From Bdellovibrionales bacterium (lineage in GTDB: Bacteria; Bdellovibrionota; Bdellovibrionia; Bdellovibrionales; UBA1609): a stretch of DNA of 64,000 nt. The stretch covers positions 114,031 to 178,030 of the forward strand of contig JAWLHR010000004.1 of NCBI GenBank assembly GCA_041690295.1. The letters run 5' to 3'. Shown here piece by piece: positions 18,464 to 34,297 of the stretch. The stretch's first letter is position 1; every line of letters starts with the position of its first letter. Made by a program: the position numbers and the translations under genes. The notes below the pieces were generated by a model. The model saw only the letters and a program-made list of their open reading frames with translations. It had not been told where the DNA came from and made no database searches.

Positions 18464-19432
18464 AGAACTGCCCCACTAGCCTGCAGAAAATCCTGGCGAG
18501 AATTTTGCCTTAAACCACAGGGCATGCGACCAAGCTGCCCCTATTGCCATTCATCCTCAGAGATGTCCGATCACCGGATGCGTATTCAAAAAGCCGGATT
18601 CTTCCGCCGAATCTCCGATGGAAAAAGAGTGCGAAGATTTTATTGTGTAAGCTGCAGTAGATACTTTTCTTATGCCACCTTTCACCCCTGCTTTAGGCAA
18701 AAAAAGCGTCACCTCAATCATCGTATCAACAAACTATTAGCTTCAAGCGTATCTCAGCGCCGAATCGCAAAATTACTCCATATCTCCCGAACCACAGTTG
18801 AACGAAAGTTTCTTTTTCTGGGCCAAAAAGCAGTCCATGAACTTGAACATCAAAACAATTCCAGTCCCCTGGCCACTGTTGTTGAATTTGATGAACTTGA
18901 AACCTTCGAGCACACAAAGTGTAAACCGCTTTCCGTTCCACTAGCCGTTGAATCAAAAACCAGAAGAATTTTAGCCTTCCAAGTGGCCCAGATGCCTGCC
19001 AAAGGAAAGCTCGCCCGCATTTCTCGAAAGAAATATGGCCCAAGACCAGACTTCAGGCCGAAAGCATTGAGTGAACTTTGTGAGAGTTTAAAGCCACTCA
19101 CCACACCTGATGTGCAATTCAAATCCGATCAAAATCCAATGTATCCGGAAATTCTAAGGCGTCACTTTCCTTTAAATTCGCATGAGCGCTTTAAAGGGCA
19201 AAGGGGTTCGATTGTCGGACAGGGGGAGTTAAAGAAGATCCGTTTTGATCCACTTTTTAGTTTGAATCACACGTGTGCGATGCTTCGAGCCAATATCAAT
19301 AGGCTAGTGCGGAAGACTTGGTGCACAACGAAAATTCCTAATAGATTGCGTCTTCATCTCGCCATCTATGCGGTTTATCACAACAATATGATTCGAGCAG
19401 GACCATTAGCTGCAGGCTAGTGGGGCAGTTCT
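18464..19432 (+). mobile_element. IS1-like insertion sequence with perfect 23-bp terminal inverted repeats
   Basis: AGAACTGCCCCACTAGCCTGCAG (18464-18486) and its reverse complement (19410-19432) bracket a transposase ORF. Confidence 0.85.
18524..19420 (+). CDS. IS1-family-like transposase (Zn finger-HTH-catalytic domain)
   Basis: CPYC…CVSC, HTH (SQRRIAKLLHISRTTV), EFDE, KSDQNPMY, LNHTCAMLRANINRLVRK resembling InsB IERHNLNLRQHLARLGRK. Confidence 0.8.
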   Translation: MRPSCPYCHSSSEMSDHRMRIQKAGFFRRISDGKRVRRFYCVSCSRYFSYATFHPCFRQKKRHLNHRINKLLASSVSQRRIAKLLHISRTTVERKFLFLGQKAVHELEHQNNSSPLATVVEFDELETFEHTKCKPLSVPLAVESKTRRILAFQVAQMPAKGKLARISRKKYGPRPDFRPKALSELCESLKPLTTPDVQFKSDQNPMYPEILRRHFPLNSHERFKGQRGSIVGQGELKKIRFDPLFSLNHTCAMLRANINRLVRKTWCTTKIPNRLRLHLAIYAVYHNNMIRAGPLAAG

Positions 19433-20628
19433 TAATCGACTCTAGGAAACGTCATGGTCACAATGGTTCCGTGATCGACTTTGCTTTGAATGGAGAAGGT
19501 TCCCCCCATATTTTCAACATTTGCACGGGCATTGAAGACTCCGATTCCTGAACCGCTATCGCCGGCCTGCTTACCATAACTGATGGGCTCTTTGCCGAGT
19601 CGGCGTAGAATTTCTTCGGGAATGCCTTTTCCTGTGTCGCTAATAATCACGGCAATGTCCCGTAAGGAAGATCGTAGCGCTACCGTAATTTCGCCGGCCC
19701 CATTTAACGCTTCGACGGAATTGTTGATCAAATTGGAAAGTGATTGAGCATACATTTTCCTGTCTAACAGGCAAATGGCCTCTTTCGTATCGCCCTGAAC
19801 ACTCGATGTTATCTTGATTTTGGAATCCGCGGGTAATGAAGCTCGCTTTTCTAAAACCAGCTCCTGAAGAAAATCCGCGACTTTTACCGGGGTTAGAAGG
19901 TTTTTTTGCTTAAGAGCCTGGCCGGAAAACGGTTTGCTTTGGGAAGGCATCTTATATTTGGCCAAGAGGTCGTTGGCGATTTCATTAATTCGCTGAGCCG
20001 CGTTTTTCACGATGGATCGTTTTTCCTCGGGAAGGTCCTTAAGCGAGGCAATGACCATGTTCAGCGCGGACAAGGGAGATCGAATGTCATGAGAAACTTG
20101 GGTCGCCAGAGCGTTGAAAGCCTCTTTTTGCTCAATGCTCAACGAAAGATTATAATCGGCGATGAGTCGAGCCCGCATGCGTTTTGAGAGAAAGTGCATC
20201 ATAAATCCGCTGAGCAGGACGGCGACAATCGAAACGAACACAAAAAACGTGAGATCGAGGCCGAACTCGATGGAACCGATCTTTTCACGAAAGGTCTCTG
20301 GTTGAGCGTCAATGACGAACGCGCTTTGTAAAAGCGGCTTCTTGTACAGAGGAGGGACGGTCAATGACTCTCGTCCGTCCGCGCTGATATAGCGAATGTA
20401 GGTGAAATGGGAGCTTACACTTAAACTGATCTCGATCATGGCGCTTCGATAGTCGCCCTTAATGAGATTCGGATGTGATTGTGTCACGGCGATTGACGCC
20501 AGTTGTTTTTTGAACGAATGAAAAAGCCAAAAGCCGGCGCCAACGCCCGAGAGCGTGAGACAAAGAAAGTAAATCCTGAGATTGAACTCCGCTTTCTTTA
20601 TTGTTCTCTCGATGTTTTGAACGCTCAT
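19432..20628 (-). CDS. Membrane sensor histidine kinase
   Basis: Two TMs flanking a periplasmic domain; H-box SHDIRSPL, N-box NLINNSVEA, DTGKGIP, GSGIG. Confidence 0.92.
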   Translation of the reverse strand: MSVQNIERTIKKAEFNLRIYFLCLTLSGVGAGFWLFHSFKKQLASIAVTQSHPNLIKGDYRSAMIEISLSVSSHFTYIRYISADGRESLTVPPLYKKPLLQSAFVIDAQPETFREKIGSIEFGLDLTFFVFVSIVAVLLSGFMMHFLSKRMRARLIADYNLSLSIEQKEAFNALATQVSHDIRSPLSALNMVIASLKDLPEEKRSIVKNAAQRINEIANDLLAKYKMPSQSKPFSGQALKQKNLLTPVKVADFLQELVLEKRASLPADSKIKITSSVQGDTKEAICLLDRKMYAQSLSNLINNSVEALNGAGEITVALRSSLRDIAVIISDTGKGIPEEILRRLGKEPISYGKQAGDSGSGIGVFNARANVENMGGTFSIQSKVDHGTIVTMTFPRVD

Positions 20629-20630
20629 GG

Positions 20631-21563
20631 CTAGCCTATAAAATGAGGAAGTGAATTGGGTTTGAAGCCGCAGTCGTATTCGATCAAATCACGATGCGAG
20701 ACCTGCACAACGCTCATCCGATCTCTTAGGTCTTCCAGGATGTCGGGAATTTTGAGTTTTCGAACATCGAAGTCGTCCAAACGGAACGGTCTTTTTTCAC
20801 GGAAATCAGGTCCATCCATTTGAGCATCGGGAAAAAGGTGGCGGATTTGTCTGACGTAATCGGGATCCAAACCGAGGAGTCCATGGTGAATCGGTTGCCA
20901 GCTCGATAGCGATCGGAATTCGGTCAAACTTACGGCCTGGACGGGTCTCGATGAAAATAAGAGCGGAAAGTTTTGAACGCACTCGAGGATCGCCTTTGTG
21001 GCAGCGCTCTCCCGGCTTTGGGCCGAGCCAAAACCGAAGATATATTTTTCGACTCCCTTGCCATCTGACCTTTTGGCGACGCAAATGAGAACTTCGCATT
21101 GTTGAAAAAGGCTCTCAGCTCGATAAATAGATACTGACACGTTTCGCTCGCGGCACTTATCCAGGAAAAAGCCAAAGGCCTTATCCGTCGGTTGCAAGTT
21201 TTGTAGCTTATATGGAATGCCATCATTGAAATGGGCGAGGACCGCATCGCGCTCGATGGCCTCGAGCGCCGCGTTGATAATGGCTTGGTCCTCATCGAAA
21301 TGCGCGGCAATTCCACTCAAAGATTTCGATTTCGAACGATGCAAAGTGATTCGCTCAAACATCTCAATTAATGATTTGCCCACGGCGCGCTCGTCAGTTT
21401 CGGCCACGGATCGGCCGACGATCTCAACCCCGGAATCGGCACAAATGGCGCGAACGTCAAAATAACCCGGAAGCCAATCTTTTATATAAGTGAGATTCTC
21501 GAATCGAAGATTGATCTTTCGTTGAGCCAGCGCCCAATTTGTCAGTTCTTCGAAATTTTCCAT
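20631..21563 (-). CDS. YcaO-family protein
   Basis: KSLIEMFER, SGIAAH…AALEAIERDA, GFGS…AATKAILECVQ motifs; C-terminal PHFIG. Confidence 0.8.
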   Translation of the reverse strand: MENFEELTNWALAQRKINLRFENLTYIKDWLPGYFDVRAICADSGVEIVGRSVAETDERAVGKSLIEMFERITLHRSKSKSLSGIAAHFDEDQAIINAALEAIERDAVLAHFNDGIPYKLQNLQPTDKAFGFFLDKCRERNVSVSIYRAESLFQQCEVLICVAKRSDGKGVEKYIFGFGSAQSRESAATKAILECVQNFPLLFSSRPVQAVSLTEFRSLSSWQPIHHGLLGLDPDYVRQIRHLFPDAQMDGPDFREKRPFRLDDFDVRKLKIPDILEDLRDRMSVVQVSHRDLIEYDCGFKPNSLPHFIG

Positions 21564-23086
21564 AAAGGTGAATTGGGGAACAAAATCGAAAAGTCAGCAC
21601 GCCATGGCTTGCGAATAACTGACACATAGGGGGTTCGTAAAATGGGAATGATCACCGGATTTAGCAAGCTTTCGAGGTGGAGCTGTTTAAGAGCTTGAAG
21701 TCGTTGTTCCTCGTCCGTCAAATAAAGGTATTTCTCGATCCACAACTCACGTTCCTGCTCCGTCGTGCCGAGAAAACCTGATTTTAAGCTGTTTATGACA
21801 TTCGGAAGTTGCTCAAGAAACCCGGTATCCATGGAAACGATGTAAAGATGGGGATATTCAGGCGCATCAACATTTGAATCGTACGAGGGAAGCCTCTTTA
21901 GTTGTACGATCTGAATGCCCGGTAGAATTTCCTGAACGACAGGCCGCATGCGATCGAAGTTACGGGCAAAGAAGCCGAGCACAAGCTCTGATCCGTCCTC
22001 GTGTTTTGGGACCGGTGTTTTTCGCTTTTCGAGGACAGCGCTTAACTGCTCGTCCGTAAGACTTCCTTTCCCGCCCTCGGGAAAATACTGGTAGGTCGAT
22101 TGATAACCGGTTCTCCCGCCAAAAACGGATGCGAGTTGATTGGCCACGGCGTTTCCAACCGCCCATCGGCGATCTGATGACAATTGGAGACCTTTTTGCG
22201 TGAAAACCAAGAGCTCAAGCCGCACGGGGAGAGTTTGAAAAAGCGTGGCCTCATTTGAGTCGCGATATTTGTCGATACGCTCACTGATGTCGGTTTGATC
22301 CAACGTACTGAGCAGATCGATTTGACCCGACTCAAATAGTTCAAGACCCGACTTCGAGGATTCGCGCGTGGGAATAAAAACCGGATTCTGTGGAATATCT
22401 TGCGAATAGAGGAAGTGCCGGGGGTTCGCGCGAAGCACAATGGCGCCGTCACTCCGGCGTTCTTTAACAGAGTAGACGCCGGACGTAATGGATAGATTCA
22501 AAGATCTGAGATCGTTGGGATCCACCGAGCGCTTGGGGATTACGGCAAAATCGATGGAGCTGAAGTTTTCGAAGATGGTGAAGGTTTTCTTGCTCGGTTT
22601 TAATCTAAGCTTGCCGTCCACAATGCGGATTCCAGCACATTGATCGTTCACGGACTTGGGTTGGCTATCCGGACAAATCAGTTTCTTCAAATCGCCGTGC
22701 GTGCTTGATCCCAGCACAAGCAATCGCATCAATGAAAAGTAGGCGTCCTCGACTGTGATCTTTTGTCCCTCGGAATCAACTAAATCCTTGTTGATTTCAA
22801 ATTCGATTTCATCATCGACCCAATAGAATTTCGACGCGGCTCCGGGAATGAGTCGGCCGAGATTGTCTCGCAACAAAAGGGGAATATACAGATTCTCTAA
22901 AAAAGCATACTGTCCGGCGACTTGAACTCGAGCGGGATCGAACTCGGAAAGGGAAGTCTCATAAGGGAATCCAACTTTGAACTCGTGAACATTTGAAGGG
23001 ACGGTCATGAGATAACCTCTGAGGCTAAAAAAAATGGCACTCAGAATGAAGAGTGCCATTGTTGCTAGAAAAAACTTAATGTTCAT
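21542..23086 (-). CDS. Family-5 (OppA/DppA-like) solute-binding protein, membrane anchored
   Basis: FDPA, NLYIPLL, LIPGAA, DSEGQKITVEDAYFSL, TSGVY, LRANP; N-terminal hydrophobic anchor. Confidence 0.8.
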   Translation of the reverse strand: MNIKFFLATMALFILSAIFFSLRGYLMTVPSNVHEFKVGFPYETSLSEFDPARVQVAGQYAFLENLYIPLLLRDNLGRLIPGAASKFYWVDDEIEFEINKDLVDSEGQKITVEDAYFSLMRLLVLGSSTHGDLKKLICPDSQPKSVNDQCAGIRIVDGKLRLKPSKKTFTIFENFSSIDFAVIPKRSVDPNDLRSLNLSITSGVYSVKERRSDGAIVLRANPRHFLYSQDIPQNPVFIPTRESSKSGLELFESGQIDLLSTLDQTDISERIDKYRDSNEATLFQTLPVRLELLVFTQKGLQLSSDRRWAVGNAVANQLASVFGGRTGYQSTYQYFPEGGKGSLTDEQLSAVLEKRKTPVPKHEDGSELVLGFFARNFDRMRPVVQEILPGIQIVQLKRLPSYDSNVDAPEYPHLYIVSMDTGFLEQLPNVINSLKSGFLGTTEQERELWIEKYLYLTDEEQRLQALKQLHLESLLNPVIIPILRTPYVSVIRKPWRADFSILFPNSPLWKISKN

Positions 23087-23098
23087 TTGAAAGCGAAC

Positions 23099-23263
23099 TT
23101 ACCTCTCTCCAATTCCAGGAGTATAGGTGCCGATTTCGTCTGGCCTATCCGTCAATAAATCCGCATTCTTGAGCTTCTTGATCACATTTCCATCCTGAGA
23201 ATCAGCGGCATGTGCTGTAGCAAGTCCAAGGATCGTTCCCAGCAAAACTAACAATGCCTTCAT
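23099..23263 (-). CDS. Small secreted peptide (54 aa), candidate RiPP/signal precursor
   Basis: Below the ORF-track cutoff. MKALLVLLGTILGLATAHA-ADSQDGNVIKKLKNADLLTDRPDEIGTYTPGIGER; AGGAGG RBS; stop 12 nt before the SBP start. Confidence 0.85.
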   Translation of the reverse strand: MKALLVLLGTILGLATAHAADSQDGNVIKKLKNADLLTDRPDEIGTYTPGIGER

Positions 23264-23310
23264 TATGTCCCTCCTGCCAAACGATGAACTGGTCAGATAA
23301 TCTATAGTTA

Positions 23311-23327
23311 AGCAAAGCTAAGGCCAA
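23311..23327 (-). promoter_or_regulatory. sigma-54 promoter of the peptide operon
   Basis: Minus strand TTGGCCTTAGCTTTGCT (GG-N10-GC), about 48 nt upstream of the peptide ATG. Confidence 0.6.
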
Positions 23328-23449: not shown

Positions 23450-24934
23450 TTAAAAATCTTTTCTCCCATCCAATTGGAGTTCATACTCGGTCACCTGTGT
23501 CGTCTTGGCTTCGCCTTTCCAGGTGTAGCTGTTGCCGTTCGGGGTGAACCCAAGTTTCCGCCAAAAACCGCTGACGTCGTTTTCTTCGGAAATTCCCAAT
23601 TGGATTTTTTCGATTTTGTAGGTTCGTTTCAAGAAATCGGCGATCAGCTCAAAAGAACGGCGGCCCAATCCTTTACCGAAAACGTCCTCAACCAAGAGCA
23701 GCAGTCCGATGTAGGCCACACCCTCCTGGGGATGATGGACATGAACGTCGGCGGCGCCGATCGGTTTTCCTTCATGTTCGATGATCATGAAGGTTTTCCG
23801 ATAGGCGGCGACTTTTTCTTTCGGCTCCAGGGTCATCTCGGTCTTGACCGTGTGTTCGCTCGGCTCGCAGCCATCGACTTTGCGAAAATACTCCGGAGAT
23901 CTTTTGAAAATCTCAAGAACGGTGGCCGCATCCTCGGGCGTGGCGAAACGCACTCTGAGGTGATCGGGAGGACGAGCGGGCGGGCGACCGTTGTGTGGGC
24001 CCATGGGTACATCCTTGGGCGCGTCCTCCCACAGCCAGCCGCGATCCTTGCCAACCAGGTTACGGAAGGTCTCCGTCGGATAGATGAATTTATCGTCTTT
24101 TGTGCGGGAGTGATCTTCGCCGATGATAAGGTAAAGGAGATCCGAATCGGTTTCATTGATAATGGTGTGCGCGATGTTGGTCCCCGCCGGAAAAACCACG
24201 CCGGTGCCGGCCTTGGCCTCGCACGTGTACCCATTCATCCAGATCGTGGCCGTTCCGGAAAGGATGAAAACAAATTCTTCTTCGATTTTATGAGCATGGG
24301 GGAAGGAGGATCTATGCCCGGGAGCGAGTTTTTCCACGCCAATGCCGAGCGCGCTCAACCCCATTTTCTCATTTAAACGAGCCCAGTGCGTGAAGGACTC
24401 TGTATCGCCGGGATAGGTCCCGGGGCCTTCGAATTCAAGTCGATTGCAATCAATGATAAACGAGGGCCATTCGCGGCCTTTTTCCTCAGGAAGAACCGGG
24501 CCGGGTTTACCCTTGTGCGGTCCCAGCTTTCGTTTCGGAGCGGACTCCCACCATATGGGAGAGGTTTCCCGCTGCTCCGGATTCACGGGAAAAGCGCAAA
24601 GGTTTTCTCTCTTCGTTTGCTCGCCCGCCACAAGAAGACGGACCGGGCGATCCGTGTTGTTGATGAAACAATGTCCAATCCCGGTTCCCGCCGGAAATCC
24701 CACCGCGCACAAGGGATGAAGACTGTGGATGTAGCCGTCGATCCAGACATCCGGATGACCTTCCAGGACGAAGACGAACTCCTCTTCCAAACTTTCGGCA
24801 TGAGGAAGCGAGGACTGGCTGCCCGGTTCCAAGATTTGGTGGTGGAGGCCCACCCGCCGGAATCCTCCAAGCTCGCTGAAGCTGAGCGCCTTGTCCGCCG
24901 GGACAACGTATTTTGTGTAAGGATTTTGATTCAT
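23450..24934 (-). CDS. Tandem cupin-cupin-GNAT acetyltransferase fusion protein
   Basis: Two repeats (PGSQSSLPHAESLEEEFVFVLEG / PGHRSSFPHAHKIEEEFVFILSG), then GNAT motif A (FGKGLG) and FWRKLGF. Confidence 0.8.
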   Translation of the reverse strand: MNQNPYTKYVVPADKALSFSELGGFRRVGLHHQILEPGSQSSLPHAESLEEEFVFVLEGHPDVWIDGYIHSLHPLCAVGFPAGTGIGHCFINNTDRPVRLLVAGEQTKRENLCAFPVNPEQRETSPIWWESAPKRKLGPHKGKPGPVLPEEKGREWPSFIIDCNRLEFEGPGTYPGDTESFTHWARLNEKMGLSALGIGVEKLAPGHRSSFPHAHKIEEEFVFILSGTATIWMNGYTCEAKAGTGVVFPAGTNIAHTIINETDSDLLYLIIGEDHSRTKDDKFIYPTETFRNLVGKDRGWLWEDAPKDVPMGPHNGRPPARPPDHLRVRFATPEDAATVLEIFKRSPEYFRKVDGCEPSEHTVKTEMTLEPKEKVAAYRKTFMIIEHEGKPIGAADVHVHHPQEGVAYIGLLLLVEDVFGKGLGRRSFELIADFLKRTYKIEKIQLGISEENDVSGFWRKLGFTPNGNSYTWKGEAKTTQVTEYELQLDGRKDF

Positions 24935-25109
24935 AGGTGTCGAGTAAAAGCTCAAAATAAGACATTAAACAAGGGGAAAATCCCGGCTCGGCGTCTCAGC
25001 CTGAAACAGGCGCTTCTGGCCATGCCTCAAAACGGGATTGAACTGGAATTTTGTCAAGTTCGTTTGAACAGTCTCCGATTAGTACGATGTCTATTGGGGA
25101 GAATGTATA

Positions 25110-29544: not shown

Positions 29545-31953
29545 CTATTGACAAGCTTCGCAATATTCCGGGTTCTCCAACGAGCAAGCCAGAGCCTCTT
29601 CATCCGTGTACTTCTTCTTTGGCTCTTCGCTGGTTCGTGTGGTGACCTTGGCGATGCGAGTCGCTGGACGTGAACGCAGGTAATAGGTGGTCTTAACACC
29701 CATCTTCCACGCGTACATGTACATCGACGAAAGTTTGCCGATGGTCGGGCTTTCAATGAACAGATTCAACGATTGCGACTGATCGATAAAAGCACCGCGG
29801 GCGGCCGCCATATCAATCAAGGCTTTCTGCGGGATTTCCCAAACCGTTCGGAAAACCGATTTGATGTCATCCGGAATATCTTCAATGGATTGAATGGACC
29901 CTTCCGCCGCTTTGATGCGATTACGGATATCCTCATTCCAAAGATTGCGCTTCTTCAAGGCGTCCACCAGATACCGGTTCACCTGGATGAACTCGCCGGA
30001 GAGAGTTTCCCGTTTGAACAGGTTTGAGACCTGCGGTTCGATGGCTTCATAAGCCCCCACGATCGACGCGATGGTCGCCGTCGGTGCGATGGCGATCATT
30101 AAGGAGTTCCTCAAGCCGATGGTTTTGATTTTCCGGCGCAGACGCTCCCAGCGCTCGCTGTCTTCGGGTTTAACGCCCCAAAGATCGAACTGTAAGATTC
30201 CCTTGGCCGCACGGGTTTCCGCGAAGGCCGGGTGGGGACCGAATTTTTCCGCCAAAGCACACGATGTTTTCAAGGCGTTGAAATAAATCTCCTCTTGAAT
30301 CTTGGTGGAGAGTTTCAGCGCCTCTTCCGAATCAAAAGGCAGGTTGAGTTTAAAGAAAACATCCTGCAAACCCATCACGCCGAGACCGACAGGGCGCCAA
30401 CGTTGATTGGAGCTCGCGGCGGTCGGGATCGGGTAGAAGTTAATGTCCACCACGCGATCCAGGAACTTGATCGCGATTTCAGCCGTATGGGCCAGCTTTT
30501 CAAAATCAAACCGGCCATCGACCACGTGAGCGCCCAGGTTGATTGAACCCAGATTGCAAACGGCCGTTTCACCATCGGATGTCACCTCTAAAATCTCAGT
30601 GCAGAGATTGGAAAGGTGAATCACATTGTGAGCCAAACCGGTTTGGTTCGATTTTTTATTGCAGGCGTCTTTGAAGGTCATCCAGCCATTGCCGGTTTGA
30701 GCCAGTGTCTTCATCATGCGGGCGTAAAGATCACGGGCCTTCACTTGCCGCACATATTTCTTTTCAGCCTCGGCCTGTTCATAGGCTTTTTCAAATTCTT
30801 CGCCGTAGAGATCCACGAAATGGGGCACTTCTTTAGGATCAAAGAGCGACCACATCTCATCGGCTTCCACTCGCCGCATGAAGATATCCGGAACCCAGTT
30901 GGCCAGGTTCAGATTGTGCGTGCGTTGCGCTTCATCACCGGTGTTGTCGCGGAGCTCGAGGAATTCCTCGATATCCGAGTGCCAGGTTTCCAAATAAATG
31001 CAAGCCGCGCCTTTGCGGCGGCCGCCTTGATTCACCGCCGCGACCGACGAATCCAAAGTCTTGAGCCAGGGCACGAGACCGTTGGAATGCCCATTCGTGC
31101 CTTTGATCAAAGAACCACGGCTTCGCACGCGCGAAAACGAAACACCGATACCGCCGGCGAATTTCGACAAGAGCGCGATGTCTTTGTACTTGTCGTAAAT
31201 CGACGACAGATCATCTTGGGGGGAATCCAGCAAATAACAAGACGACAACTGCGGGCGATTGGTGGCCGAATTGAACAGCGTCGGCGAACTGGGCATGTAA
31301 TCCAGGCTCGAAATCAATTCATAGAATTCTTTGGCTTCCTGAAAGGTGTTGGCCAGCCCGCAAGCCACGCGCAAAAAGAAATACTGAGGCGTCTCCACGA
31401 CCTGGCGGCTGACCGGATCTTTTAAAAGATAGCGGTCATAGATCGTCCTCAAGCCGAAATACTCGAAACGATGAGTGCGGGATTCATCAACAATGATGTT
31501 CAGCGCCTCTTTGTGCTCTTTCACGAACTTGTATTTCTCTTCGCTCACCAATCCCTGTTTATAGGCCAAGGTGATGGAGTCATAGAAGTTGCGCACATTC
31601 TGATTGGTCACTTCCTCACCGATGTAACGGGCGAGCAACCGCGAGGCCAGGCGTGAGTATTGCGGCTCTTCGCCAATCAACAAAGCGGCGGTTTGAATGC
31701 AAAGCTGGTCGAGCTCTTTGGTGGTGGCGCCATCATACAGGCCGCTGATGACTTTCGCCGCCACACGCATGGGATCCACTTCCTTGAGTCCCGTGGAGCA
31801 GGCCAAGACCACGTTCACGATTTTGTTGACGTCGACCGGTTGTAAACTGCCATCGCGCTTGCGCACGCGCATGACGATCGGTCCCTCGCCTCCGGCTTCA
31901 GGAGCGATTGGATTCATGGCGACCTTTTCCATGGTCTCAGTTTGTACGTTCAT
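29545..31953 (-). CDS. nrdA: Ribonucleotide reductase alpha subunit with ATP cone
   Basis: VRKRDG ATP cone, SPTLFN, SSCYL, SNLCTE, VCNLGS, APTAT, C-terminal CEAC. Confidence 0.96.
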   Translation of the reverse strand: MNVQTETMEKVAMNPIAPEAGGEGPIVMRVRKRDGSLQPVDVNKIVNVVLACSTGLKEVDPMRVAAKVISGLYDGATTKELDQLCIQTAALLIGEEPQYSRLASRLLARYIGEEVTNQNVRNFYDSITLAYKQGLVSEEKYKFVKEHKEALNIIVDESRTHRFEYFGLRTIYDRYLLKDPVSRQVVETPQYFFLRVACGLANTFQEAKEFYELISSLDYMPSSPTLFNSATNRPQLSSCYLLDSPQDDLSSIYDKYKDIALLSKFAGGIGVSFSRVRSRGSLIKGTNGHSNGLVPWLKTLDSSVAAVNQGGRRKGAACIYLETWHSDIEEFLELRDNTGDEAQRTHNLNLANWVPDIFMRRVEADEMWSLFDPKEVPHFVDLYGEEFEKAYEQAEAEKKYVRQVKARDLYARMMKTLAQTGNGWMTFKDACNKKSNQTGLAHNVIHLSNLCTEILEVTSDGETAVCNLGSINLGAHVVDGRFDFEKLAHTAEIAIKFLDRVVDINFYPIPTAASSNQRWRPVGLGVMGLQDVFFKLNLPFDSEEALKLSTKIQEEIYFNALKTSCALAEKFGPHPAFAETRAAKGILQFDLWGVKPEDSERWERLRRKIKTIGLRNSLMIAIAPTATIASIVGAYEAIEPQVSNLFKRETLSGEFIQVNRYLVDALKKRNLWNEDIRNRIKAAEGSIQSIEDIPDDIKSVFRTVWEIPQKALIDMAAARGAFIDQSQSLNLFIESPTIGKLSSMYMYAWKMGVKTTYYLRSRPATRIAKVTTRTSEEPKKKYTDEEALACSLENPEYCEACQ

Positions 31954-32362: not shown

Positions 32363-34297
32363 TCAACGTCTCATGCGCTGAGACATCAATTCTTTGACGA
32401 CGTTAGGATCGGCGAGAGTTGACGTGTCTCCAATATTATCGAGTTCATTGCAGGCGATCTTGCGCAAAATACGCCGCATAATTTTACCGCTTCGCGTTTT
32501 CGGCAAACCAGGCGCCCATTGAATCAAATCCGGCTTCGCCAAGCCGCCGATTTCCTTTTTCACCCATTCACCTAATTCCGCACGCAGTTCGTCCGTGGGT
32601 GTGACATCGGCGTTTAAGGTGACAAACGCGTAAATACCTTGGCCTTTGATATCATGGGGAAATCCAACCACCGCCGCTTCGCAGACTTTCGGGTGAGCGA
32701 CGAGCGCGCTTTCGATTTCAGCGGTTCCCAAACGGTGACCGGACACGTTCAAGACATCATCCACGCGCCCGATAATCCAGTAATCGCCATCGGCGTCGCG
32801 CGTACATCCGTCGCCGGTAAAATAAAGCCCCGGATAAGTTGCGAAATAAGTTTGATAAAAGCGCTCGTGATCTTTGTACACCGTTCGCATCTGTCCCGGC
32901 CACGAGGACTCCATGCAAAGATGACCGTTGGCCACACCTTCCAGGCGTTGTCCTTTGTCGTCCACGATCACGGGCTTCACACCGAAGAAGGGTTTGGTCG
33001 CCGAGCCCGGTTTAAGTTCCGTGGCGCCGGGCAGGGGTGTGATCATGATGCCGCCGGTTTCCGTTTGCCACCAGGTATCCACGATGGGGCAGCGGCTGTC
33101 GCCGACCACGCGATGATACCAAAGCCAAGCTTCCGGATTGATGGGTTCTCCCACCGAGCCTAAAAGGCGAAGGCTCGCCCGCGAGGTTTTCTTGACCGGT
33201 TCTTCTCCCAGCGCCATCAATGAGCGAATTAAAGTCGGTGCGGTATAGAGGATGCTGACTTTGTATTGATCGACGATTTCCCAGATCCGGCTGGTGGTGG
33301 GAAAAGTCGGCAGGCCTTCGTAAAGCACGCTAGTCGCGGCATTACTCAACGGACCGTAAAGGATGTAGCTATGGCCCGTGACCCAGCCGATATCCGCCGC
33401 GCACCAATAGATGTCTTCCGGATGGTAATCAAAGACCATCTGGTGAGTGAACGAAGCGTAAACCAGATAACCGGCGCTGGTATGCAAAACGCCTTTGGGT
33501 TTGTTGGTGGAGCCTGAGGTGTAAAGAAGAAACAGCGGATCCTCGGCGTCCACGACTTCCGGTTCACACTGTGTGGATTGATCGGCGACCAACTCGTGGT
33601 ACCAGACATCCCTCTCAGGATCCATCGGCACATCGCCGCCGGTGTGTCGAACCACGATCACGGATTTAACTCGCGGTGCTTTTTTAATGGCTTCCACCGT
33701 GTTGGCTTTCAGCGGCACTTTACGCCCACCGCGAACGCCTTCGTCCGCGGTGATGACATAATCGCTTTCACAGTCGTTGATTCGATCGGCGATGGACTCA
33801 GGGCTGAATCCGCCGAAAACAACCGAGTGAGCCGCGCCGATTCGCGCGCAGGCCAACATGGCGTAAACCGTTTCGGGAATCATGGGCATATATATGGTCA
33901 CTCGATCGCCTTTTTTGATACCGAGCTTTTTGTAGCCGTTAGCCAGGCGACCCACATGGTCATGAAGCATTTGGTAAGTGATGGCTTGGCGCGAATGCCG
34001 GGCGGGATCCTCGGGTTCCCAATAAAAAGCCACCTTATCTTTATGAGTGGGAAGATGGCGATCGACACAGTTGAAGCAAACGTTGAGCTTTGCTCCGCTA
34101 AACCATTCGATGTGCACGGGATATTCAAAAGTACAGTTTTGAACCTTATCCCATTTTTTGATCCAAGTTATGCGTTCGGCGATTTGACTCCAAAACTGAT
34201 CGGGGTCATTGACGCTCATTGGATAGAGGTCGTTGTACTTCGCTGAATTGATCCAAGCTTTCTGACTCCACTCCGCGCTGACTGGAAAACGGCTCAT
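32363..34297 (-). CDS. acs: Acetyl-CoA synthetase
   Basis: [32 protein letters not shown]. Confidence 0.96.

Follow-up and report, generated by a model that had tools for sequence, protein, structure and literature searches.

A probable RiPP precursor gene in an operon with a family-5 SBP, a stand-alone YcaO and a histidine kinase in a Bdellovibrionales bacterium

Is a 54-aa open reading frame lying ahead of a stand-alone YcaO gene the precursor of a modified peptide, and, if it is, which residue would be modified and what would the product do? The frame lies in a 64,000-nt stretch of DNA from a Bdellovibrionales bacterium (contig JAWLHR010000004.1, positions 114,031 to 178,030; hereafter the window). 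Its operon runs in the order precursor, family-5 SBP, stand-alone YcaO and histidine kinase; the SBP gene starts 12 nt after the precursor stop and overlaps the YcaO gene by 22 nt, and the kinase gene starts 2 nt after YcaO. The features discussed below are, in window positions:

23311..23326, minus strand: predicted sigma-54 (-24/-12) promoter, TGGCCTTAGCTTTGCT, beginning 63 nt ahead of the peptide ATG
23270..23275, minus strand: RBS of the precursor gene, AGGAGG, 6 nt upstream of the ATG
23099..23263, minus strand: precursor peptide gene, 54 aa (ORF with ATG start, positional homologues, gene-finder call)
23207..23263, minus strand: predicted Sec/SPase I signal, residues 1-19, cleaved between AHA and A (sequence reading)
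23153..23185, minus strand: leader motif V27-L37, VIKKLKNADLL, family pattern xLxxLxxxGxL (profile, alignment, relatives)
23120..23122, minus strand: codon of Thr48, the predicted target of the YcaO, which as 11th residue past the motif aligns with the family Cys column (profile, MAFFT, relatives)
21542..23086, minus strand: family-5 SBP with N-terminal membrane anchor/signal and no adjoining ABC permease (PF00496 over cut-off, fold, Cys pair)
23033..23060, minus strand: terminator-like hairpin and T run inside the SBP anchor codons (strong, z -3.0; locus-specific)
23006..23019, minus strand: second RBS of the SBP gene (GAGGT) with an in-frame ATG (Met27), start of a predicted signal-less isoform (RBS energy, counts)
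20631..21563, minus strand: stand-alone YcaO, 310 aa, ATP/Mg motifs intact, C-terminus PHFIG (Pfam, alignment, fold)
19432..20628, minus strand: membrane sensor histidine kinase, HisKA and HATPase_c (domain match)
18464..19432, plus strand: IS1-like element, multi-copy, abutting the kinase stop codon, outside the system (family match, repeats)

The precursor gene and the cassette family

The 54-aa ORF is a real gene. Its AGGAGG RBS, rightly called strong in the preliminary description of this DNA, has a duplex energy of -10.8 kcal/mol against the anti-SD 9-mer, and inspection together with hydropathy indicates a predicted signal (Lys2, a hydrophobic stretch and A17-H18-A19 ahead of A20, that is, n-, h- and c-regions with an AxA site), which by sequence reading leaves a predicted mature precursor of 35 aa free of Cys. 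The gene had been regarded as unannotated, which holds for the ORF track used at that time and not overall: a gene caller had called the exact 54-aa protein, which is present in a public protein collection from the same contig with NCBI as its source. Among four DNA sequencing runs, two yielded three near-identical contig pieces and the other two yielded nothing. A direct homologue search with the window peptide returned only the peptide itself. It had no match in Pfam or NCBIfam and no paralogue in its own genome by loose tblastn; Rfam gave no match, and no sigma-70 promoter was found on the coding strand.

Positional homologues in related operons, which the preliminary description had proposed to look for, were found. 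A YcaO search profile made of the window YcaO and six relatives matched 79 of the 401 genomes of the phylum at 102 places, and the census covered 61 loci, namely the window and 60 regions round the best-scoring of these places, the weakest being left out. An SBP gene is present at 52 of the 61 loci (window included), accompanied by a kinase gene at 51 of these 52, by an NtrC-like sigma-54 regulator gene at 30 (an adjacent regulator is missing at 22) and by VirB4/pilin-type conjugation genes at 15. A small ORF with an RBS and a signal lies just upstream at 46 of the 52 SBP loci, window included; the signal is present in all of these ORFs by selection, as it was a filter criterion, one of the calls (L052) is probably wrong, and 6 loci have no such ORF by the filter used. 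These precursors are 51-171 aa long and contain the motif xLxxLxxxGxL, repeated in some of them, followed by a variable tail, with a Cys near the C-terminus in 41 of the 46. A held-out set added 21 peptides in 28 further loci, among them two records titled Elusimicrobia and one titled Bacteroidota. Thus, a small gene beside a maturase, in a conserved position as expected of a RiPP precursor, recurs in both sets.

Searching 1.84 billion representatives with a precursor profile gave 25 matches, including 15 short signal-bearing proteins, 12 of which are new; the Cys found at +11 in the 25 matches is partly circular, because the profile contains that column. Comparison of 39 precursors with Pfam and NCBIfam gave nothing meaningful, the ESM Atlas returned only a 0.76 match for one precursor and generic SBP5 clusters, and no SBP match was found in the plasmid collection. 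The precursor family is widespread and uncatalogued, in apparently predatory-type Gram-negative bacteria. We take the ORF of the window to be a genuine precursor, with a modification predicted from sequence, and its cassette to be a RiPP-sensing module that has so far escaped cataloguing and would be a variant form of peptide autoinduction.

Several other arrangements were also observed. In G276 and G219 (L112-L115, L046, L048), the system is split, the regulator-YcaO-kinase block lying apart from several peptide-SBP pairs, some with tandem SBPs. Another recurrent YcaO context (L074, L083, L085) has no SBP and contains sulfatase-like, DUF294 nucleotidyltransferase, glycosyltransferase and fatty-acid hydroxylase genes. 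The precursors of L042, L084, L087 and L094 have a duplicated or triplicated leader unit (helix, G-x-L, hairpin) that is winged-helix-like by eye, and the core encoded at L076:4220-4570 is tandemly repeated and Cys-free (GGRT..GTxARD units) instead of having the usual single Cys.

Leader motif and the fixed Cys/Ser/Thr position

The tripartite layout of signal, leader and core suggested earlier is borne out by the homologues: VIKKLKNADLL corresponds to the family leader motif (LxxLxxxGxL, then Cys, usually ten residues on), and the division into conserved leader and variable core sought upstream of related cassettes is seen there as a shared motif followed by a variable tail. The window motif scores 8.8, and 49 of 67 peptides score ≥5. 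The ADLL variant is also found in P0035, the 54-aa peptide of L072 has KLKNAGVL, and P0025 has GTYC where the window peptide has GTYT. An ungapped profile of 18 non-redundant relatives, with the Cys column left out, finds its best placement on the window peptide at V27-Y47, which puts Thr48 in the Cys position (46 of 5000 shuffles equal this score). MAFFT aligns Thr48 to the Cys column without gaps in the same register.

In the 49 peptides with the motif, the residue at +11 is Cys in 30 (25 of the Cys rows had been picked by that spacing), Ser in 4 and Thr in 2, and in most of the others a Cys stands slightly farther on, by one or a few residues. The motif is present in 12 of the 21 held-out peptides, with Cys at +11 in 5, at +12 in 4 and at +14 in 1, and both Cys-free ones have Ser or Thr at +11. 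Overall, Ser or Thr occupies +11 in all five Cys-free cores with the motif (p ~0.0007; 4/4 and p ~0.004 without the window), a test that comprises five cores only, with L071 and L081 related to each other and L125 and L129 seen by eye beforehand.

Judged by its sequence, the window peptide is a weak member of the family. A leave-one-out HMM missed it at E<10 among 54,846 segments of its own genome, and it is absent from the 25 matches of the profile that had included it; when the 158 small signal ORFs of that genome are ordered by the ungapped profile, it comes 4th. The conserved leader and the variable core with a modifiable residue that are looked for in a RiPP are present, the match of the window being modest by both the shuffles and the HMM. 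The interchange of Cys, Ser and Thr at a fixed position points to azoline formation by the YcaO, and a position that accepts only these residues would behave like an azoline target; a Cys/Ser/Thr substrate residue in the core is also expected of LAP/TOMM precursors. With regard to the YcaO targets named in the preliminary description, the choice of Thr gained support and can be narrowed to Thr48 in the conserved Cys column; the Gly/Pro backbone positions gained none.

The YcaO enzyme and its predicted chemistry

The enzyme belongs to the YcaO superfamily (PF02624, 57.1 bits against a cut-off of 25.7). Residues E67, R71, G84, E101, E104 and R105 are invariant across 47 rows, and E70 and E194 are nearly so. 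Its model (pLDDT 93.9) matches archaeal thioamide YcaOs (TM 0.63), LynD (0.65) and McbD, the best fold matches by E-value being the thioamide-forming archaeal YcaOs. With TIGR03604 it scores 45.6 bits, below the cut-off of 219, and the SagD-type azoline model is the best-scoring one for every family YcaO that scores (34 of 47), always below cut-off. The PxP motif is missing in the window YcaO, which has PHF there; Pro is found at that column in 21 of the 47 rows, and the C-terminal tail is missing from one clade whose YcaOs are short (265-294 aa). When near relatives of the YcaO were sought together with their surrounding DNA, the scans gave either nothing or three distant loci, so that the subclade of the window YcaO (P0002-P0007 in a quick tree) offers no precursor for comparison.

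According to the available text of PMC7136475 and PMC12670281, YcaOs form azolines, amidines or thioamides, usually together with E1/ThiF or TfuA partners, and azoline-forming YcaOs end in PxP. The window cassette resembles the azoline-type clusters (LAP/TOMM) in having a YcaO with intact ATP/Mg motifs and a leader joined to a Cys/Ser/Thr-containing core. It differs from them in having no E1/ThiF partner, RRE or dehydrogenase, in PHFIG instead of PxP, in a precursor with one fixed target position and a Sec signal, and in its linkage to an SBP and a kinase, not to an exporter. The recurrent neighbours of the 61 loci include neither an E1/ThiF/TfuA partner nor a dehydrogenase, and neither a protease nor an outer-membrane exporter. 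The pair of an E1-like/ThiF-like partner and a dehydrogenase that marks a LAP/TOMM cluster is therefore missing from these neighbours, as is the TfuA partner of a thioamitide cluster (the scan covering recurrent neighbours), and, judged by its gene content and the C-terminus of its YcaO, the cassette is not a LAP cluster by membership.

A hydrophobic N-terminus was found in 1 of 53 family YcaO ORFs, in agreement with the earlier statement that the YcaO has no signal peptide, and modification would thus precede export. This order had been described as unusual; it is indeed rare, but it has a precedent in bufferins (PMC11626156, available text).

The same circuit may also work with another chemistry, in which the YcaO activates the backbone beside the fixed Cys/Ser/Thr residue and the result is cleavage (MusD-like), an amidine or a thioamide, and not a stable azoline. 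The missing PxP, the missing tail in one clade and the thioamide YcaOs as closest folds all agree with this, and the cassette has no protease, while MusD is a YcaO that hydrolyses a peptide bond with ATP (PMC10885120, available text). However, a position restricted to Cys, Ser and Thr fits an attack by the side chain, TfuA is not found among the neighbours, and the azoline model remains the best, if below cut-off, for the members that score. We consider such a different chemistry unlikely and prefer azoline formation at Thr48.

Binding protein, kinase and the proposed circuit

The SBP has the fold of OppA, MppA, AapF and NikA and also matches the metallophore binders NikA/CntA; another structure match is 4faj (E 1.3e-8), the plasmid pheromone receptor PrgZ. 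A near-invariant Cys pair in the SBPs is consistent with a periplasmic disulfide. No ABC permease or ATPase genes of the Opp/Dpp importer type were found among the recurrent neighbours of the SBP at the 61 loci, and the kinase of the window has one clear hydrophobic segment (117-135). SBP genes adjoining sensor-kinase genes are a known signalling layout, and in LuxP-LuxQ and other pairs of this type the SBP gene likewise adjoins a membrane kinase gene and no transporter (PMC8050422, available text), whereas here the SBP is of family 5 (OppA-type) and its predicted ligand is a modified peptide encoded in the same operon.

Past its membrane anchor, the SBP gene contains a second RBS and ATG, from which a cytoplasmic isoform is predicted. 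In the window, the RBS of this internal start (Met27, -6.5) is stronger than that of the first start (-2.8), and the structure predicted for the short form is that of a complete SBP. An in-frame Met after the anchor is present in 46 of 52 SBPs (~32% expected), and an internal Met with an RBS of ≤ -4.5 kcal/mol in 32 of 52, compared with 17 of 371 deeper Mets and 0 of 19 kinase Mets, counts that are not independent, as relatedness among the loci reduces them to 26 clusters at 50% identity. The background for a post-anchor RBS and ATG is 12 of 409 anchored proteins of the window genome. The held-out SBPs are weaker in this respect, with the Met in 19 of 31 and a strong RBS in 8 of 31. The anchor is coding: all 35 testable loci have a stop-free hydrophobic stretch in the SBP frame, whereas the two remaining frames have one at 1 and 0 loci. 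A cytoplasmic SBP isoform is thus predicted for part of the family, and it might serve as a helper of the YcaO. A predicted complex of YcaO, short SBP, ATP and mature peptide scored 0.75, compared with 0.00 for the peptide-replaced controls and 0.72 for the SBP-replaced control; these scores count neither for nor against the complex. Internal initiation that changes protein location is known from the N-terminal proteoforms of SpaO, CheA and SseL (PMC13515050, available text); here, too, a second in-frame start gives a predicted shorter isoform elsewhere in the cell, with the difference that the predicted change is the loss of an anchor from a peptide-binding protein encoded beside a cytoplasmic maturase. 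The hairpin inside the anchor codons was also considered as a family feature following the peptide and was rejected, comparable hairpins being found in only a few of the 46 loci.

The sigma-54 site ahead of the peptide gene, scored like all such sites with a -24/-12 consensus, has a near-identical counterpart at L049. Of 29 cassette regulators, 12 have a site of this type upstream (0.6 expected) and the other 17 have no strong site; ahead of the peptide gene, such a site is found at 3 of 19 regulator-less loci (the window among them) and at 0 of 27 loci with a regulator. Together with the NtrC-like regulator at 30 of the 52 SBP loci, the site ahead of the gene suggests positive feedback on the operon. 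The window genome contains rpoN; no regulator lies beside the window cassette, and the best genome matches to cassette regulators are 38-40% identical. The co-encoded precursor, receptor kinase and regulator with a promoter that make up an autoinduction loop are therefore found for the family, while the window has the site and no adjacent regulator.

There is direct support for the gene and its family, the leader motif, the fixed Cys/Ser/Thr position, the operon order, the intact ATP motifs of the YcaO, the sigma-54 sites and the association with a regulator, and we infer chemistry, export, binding and feedback as follows. The YcaO would likely bind the leader motif of the precursor in the cytoplasm and probably cyclodehydrate Thr48 to a methyloxazoline. 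Sec would export the modified precursor, the signal being removed; the membrane-anchored SBP is predicted to bind the modified peptide and switch the kinase, and the kinase would drive the sigma-54 activator, which would feed back on the operon. In the window genome, this regulator would act in trans. A cell would sense its own modified peptide in a quorum-sensing-like loop, and the signal may pass between cells. As a whole, from the azoline at Thr48 to the sigma-54 feedback, this circuit has in our view slightly better than an even chance of being right. In the Gram-positive agr AIP and ComX systems and with PrgZ, a single auto-inducing operon likewise encodes a precursor together with its maturase, a kinase and a regulator, the cores vary, and there is a link to conjugation; the present system differs in its Gram-negative envelope and in the predicted Sec export, YcaO chemistry, SBP co-receptor and sigma-54 output.

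It is also conceivable that the peptide stays in the periplasm of its producer, in which case the loop would tell of the cell's own condition, be it export capacity, metal binding or the presence of the mobile element, and not of cell density. Sec takes its substrates no further than the periplasm, the cassette is linked to neither an outer-membrane exporter nor a protease, the SBP fold matches metallophore binders, and many precursors are 90-170 aa long with repeated leader units. Bufferins, which are Sec-exported RiPPs binding copper in the periplasm (PMC11626156, available text), share with the window peptide a Sec-signal precursor, cytoplasmic modification (predicted here) and a Gram-negative periplasm as end point, but they are modified by an MNIO and not by a YcaO, and the SBP5, kinase and sigma-54 activator found here suggest sensing, not chelation; the MNIO (DUF692) and DUF2063 genes and the multi-Cys core of that class are not found in the cassette. 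Moreover, variable cores, several cassettes per genome and the conjugation genes at 15 of 52 loci fit strain-specific signalling, and Ser/Thr variants would probably bind soft metals poorly. We regard a loop confined to the periplasm as quite unlikely and retain the sensing circuit described above.

Another explanation accepts the family and takes the window copy for a decaying orphan on an acquired island, in which Thr48 arose from Cys by drift. The cassette has a GC content of 47.6% between flanks of 54.8% and 52.8%, the IS abuts the kinase stop, no regulator is adjacent, and the profile scores of the peptide are weak. However, all four frames are intact, as are the YcaO motifs, the strong RBS and the sigma-54 site, an adjacent regulator is also missing at 22 of the 52 SBP loci, and other Ser/Thr cores exist; decay is improbable. 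That the ORF is an open frame arisen by chance whose first residues happen to be hydrophobic, as the lack of a direct homologue and of any Pfam/NCBIfam match might imply, is highly improbable in view of the positional homologues, the motif match, the strong RBS and the gene-finder call.

As to the surroundings, the IS1-like element has 28-nt inverted repeats and >10 copies or fragments genome-wide at 94-97% protein identity. Directly upstream of the cassette, a single-copy gene for a double-cupin and GNAT fusion lies on the same strand (window 23450-24955), and the ribonucleotide reductase alpha subunit at window 29545-31953 has its best plasmid-collection matches in two actinobacterial records and one Bdellovibrio record (61-65% identity). 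A bacterial histone at L135:1483-1719 is close to PDB 8cmp/8fvx, the Bdellovibrio histone entries, and points to a likely Bdellovibrionota genome.

Further cassettes with SBP5 or kinase genes were observed in the same genome. At G000:C19:21762-25920 (L130), a radical SAM/SPASM gene, a 101-aa signal-bearing ORF ending in ATRSVW, an SBP5 gene (which likewise has a Met preceded by an RBS inside it) and a kinase gene form a sister cassette with another maturase. At G000:C2:28440-35206 (L131), a RiPP radical SAM C-methyltransferase gene (TIGR03975, 505 bits, over cut-off) is divergent from SBP5, MFS-like and kinase genes, and a 42-aa Lys/Ser-rich ORF with a strong RBS (33295-33423) lies ahead of it. 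G000:C3:218978-221424 (L132), near a contig end, contains a 71-aa signal-bearing ORF, an aKG-HExxH beta-hydroxylase (TIGR04267 over cut-off) and an SBP5, while G000:C4:29464-34341 (L133) contains an 86-aa signal-bearing ORF ending in ASDQPW, with a methyltransferase-like gene and hydrolases round a divergent kinase. A further SBP5-kinase pair with a divergent MFS-like gene is found at G000:C14:71123-76823 (L134), where no precursor was found. The SBPs of the C19, C2 and C3 cassettes are distant from the window SBP subfamily. The presence of other SBP5 cassettes with other maturases in one genome suggests a general precursor-maturase-SBP-kinase design with an exchangeable maturase. A broader reading would join all of this into a Gram-negative peptide quorum sensing of Bdellovibrio-like bacteria with plug-in chemistry: a YcaO heterocycle at a ruler-measured Cys, Ser or Thr, or radical-SAM/HExxH chemistry in the sister cassettes; one SBP gene giving two products, an anchored periplasmic receptor and a cytoplasmic form that would keep the precursor back for a YcaO working without a partner and so slow its export; and a loop controlling conjugative elements via sigma-54. 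This combination is possible, but we would not expect every part of it to hold.

Signalling by modified peptides through membrane kinases is textbook knowledge in Gram-positive bacteria. For a version with YcaO chemistry in Bdellovibrio-like bacteria, we found no describing paper in the literature text available to us, nor any account of a peptide-SBP5-YcaO-kinase cassette, although large tables from YcaO or RiPP mining may list such loci; a term search in the available text of a Bdellovibrionota comparative-genomics paper (PMC11656739) gave no match. The window peptide yields an exact prediction, an 18 Da loss at Thr48, and the predicted dual-start SBP suggests, in a form open to test, by what means an enzyme in the cytoplasm may reach a Sec substrate before its export. 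If the proposed circuit is true, the YcaO would be a minimal, partner-free enzyme acting at one measured position and a tool for peptide engineering, and predatory-type Gram-negative bacteria would possess peptide signals that are specific to the strain and in many cases linked to conjugative elements.
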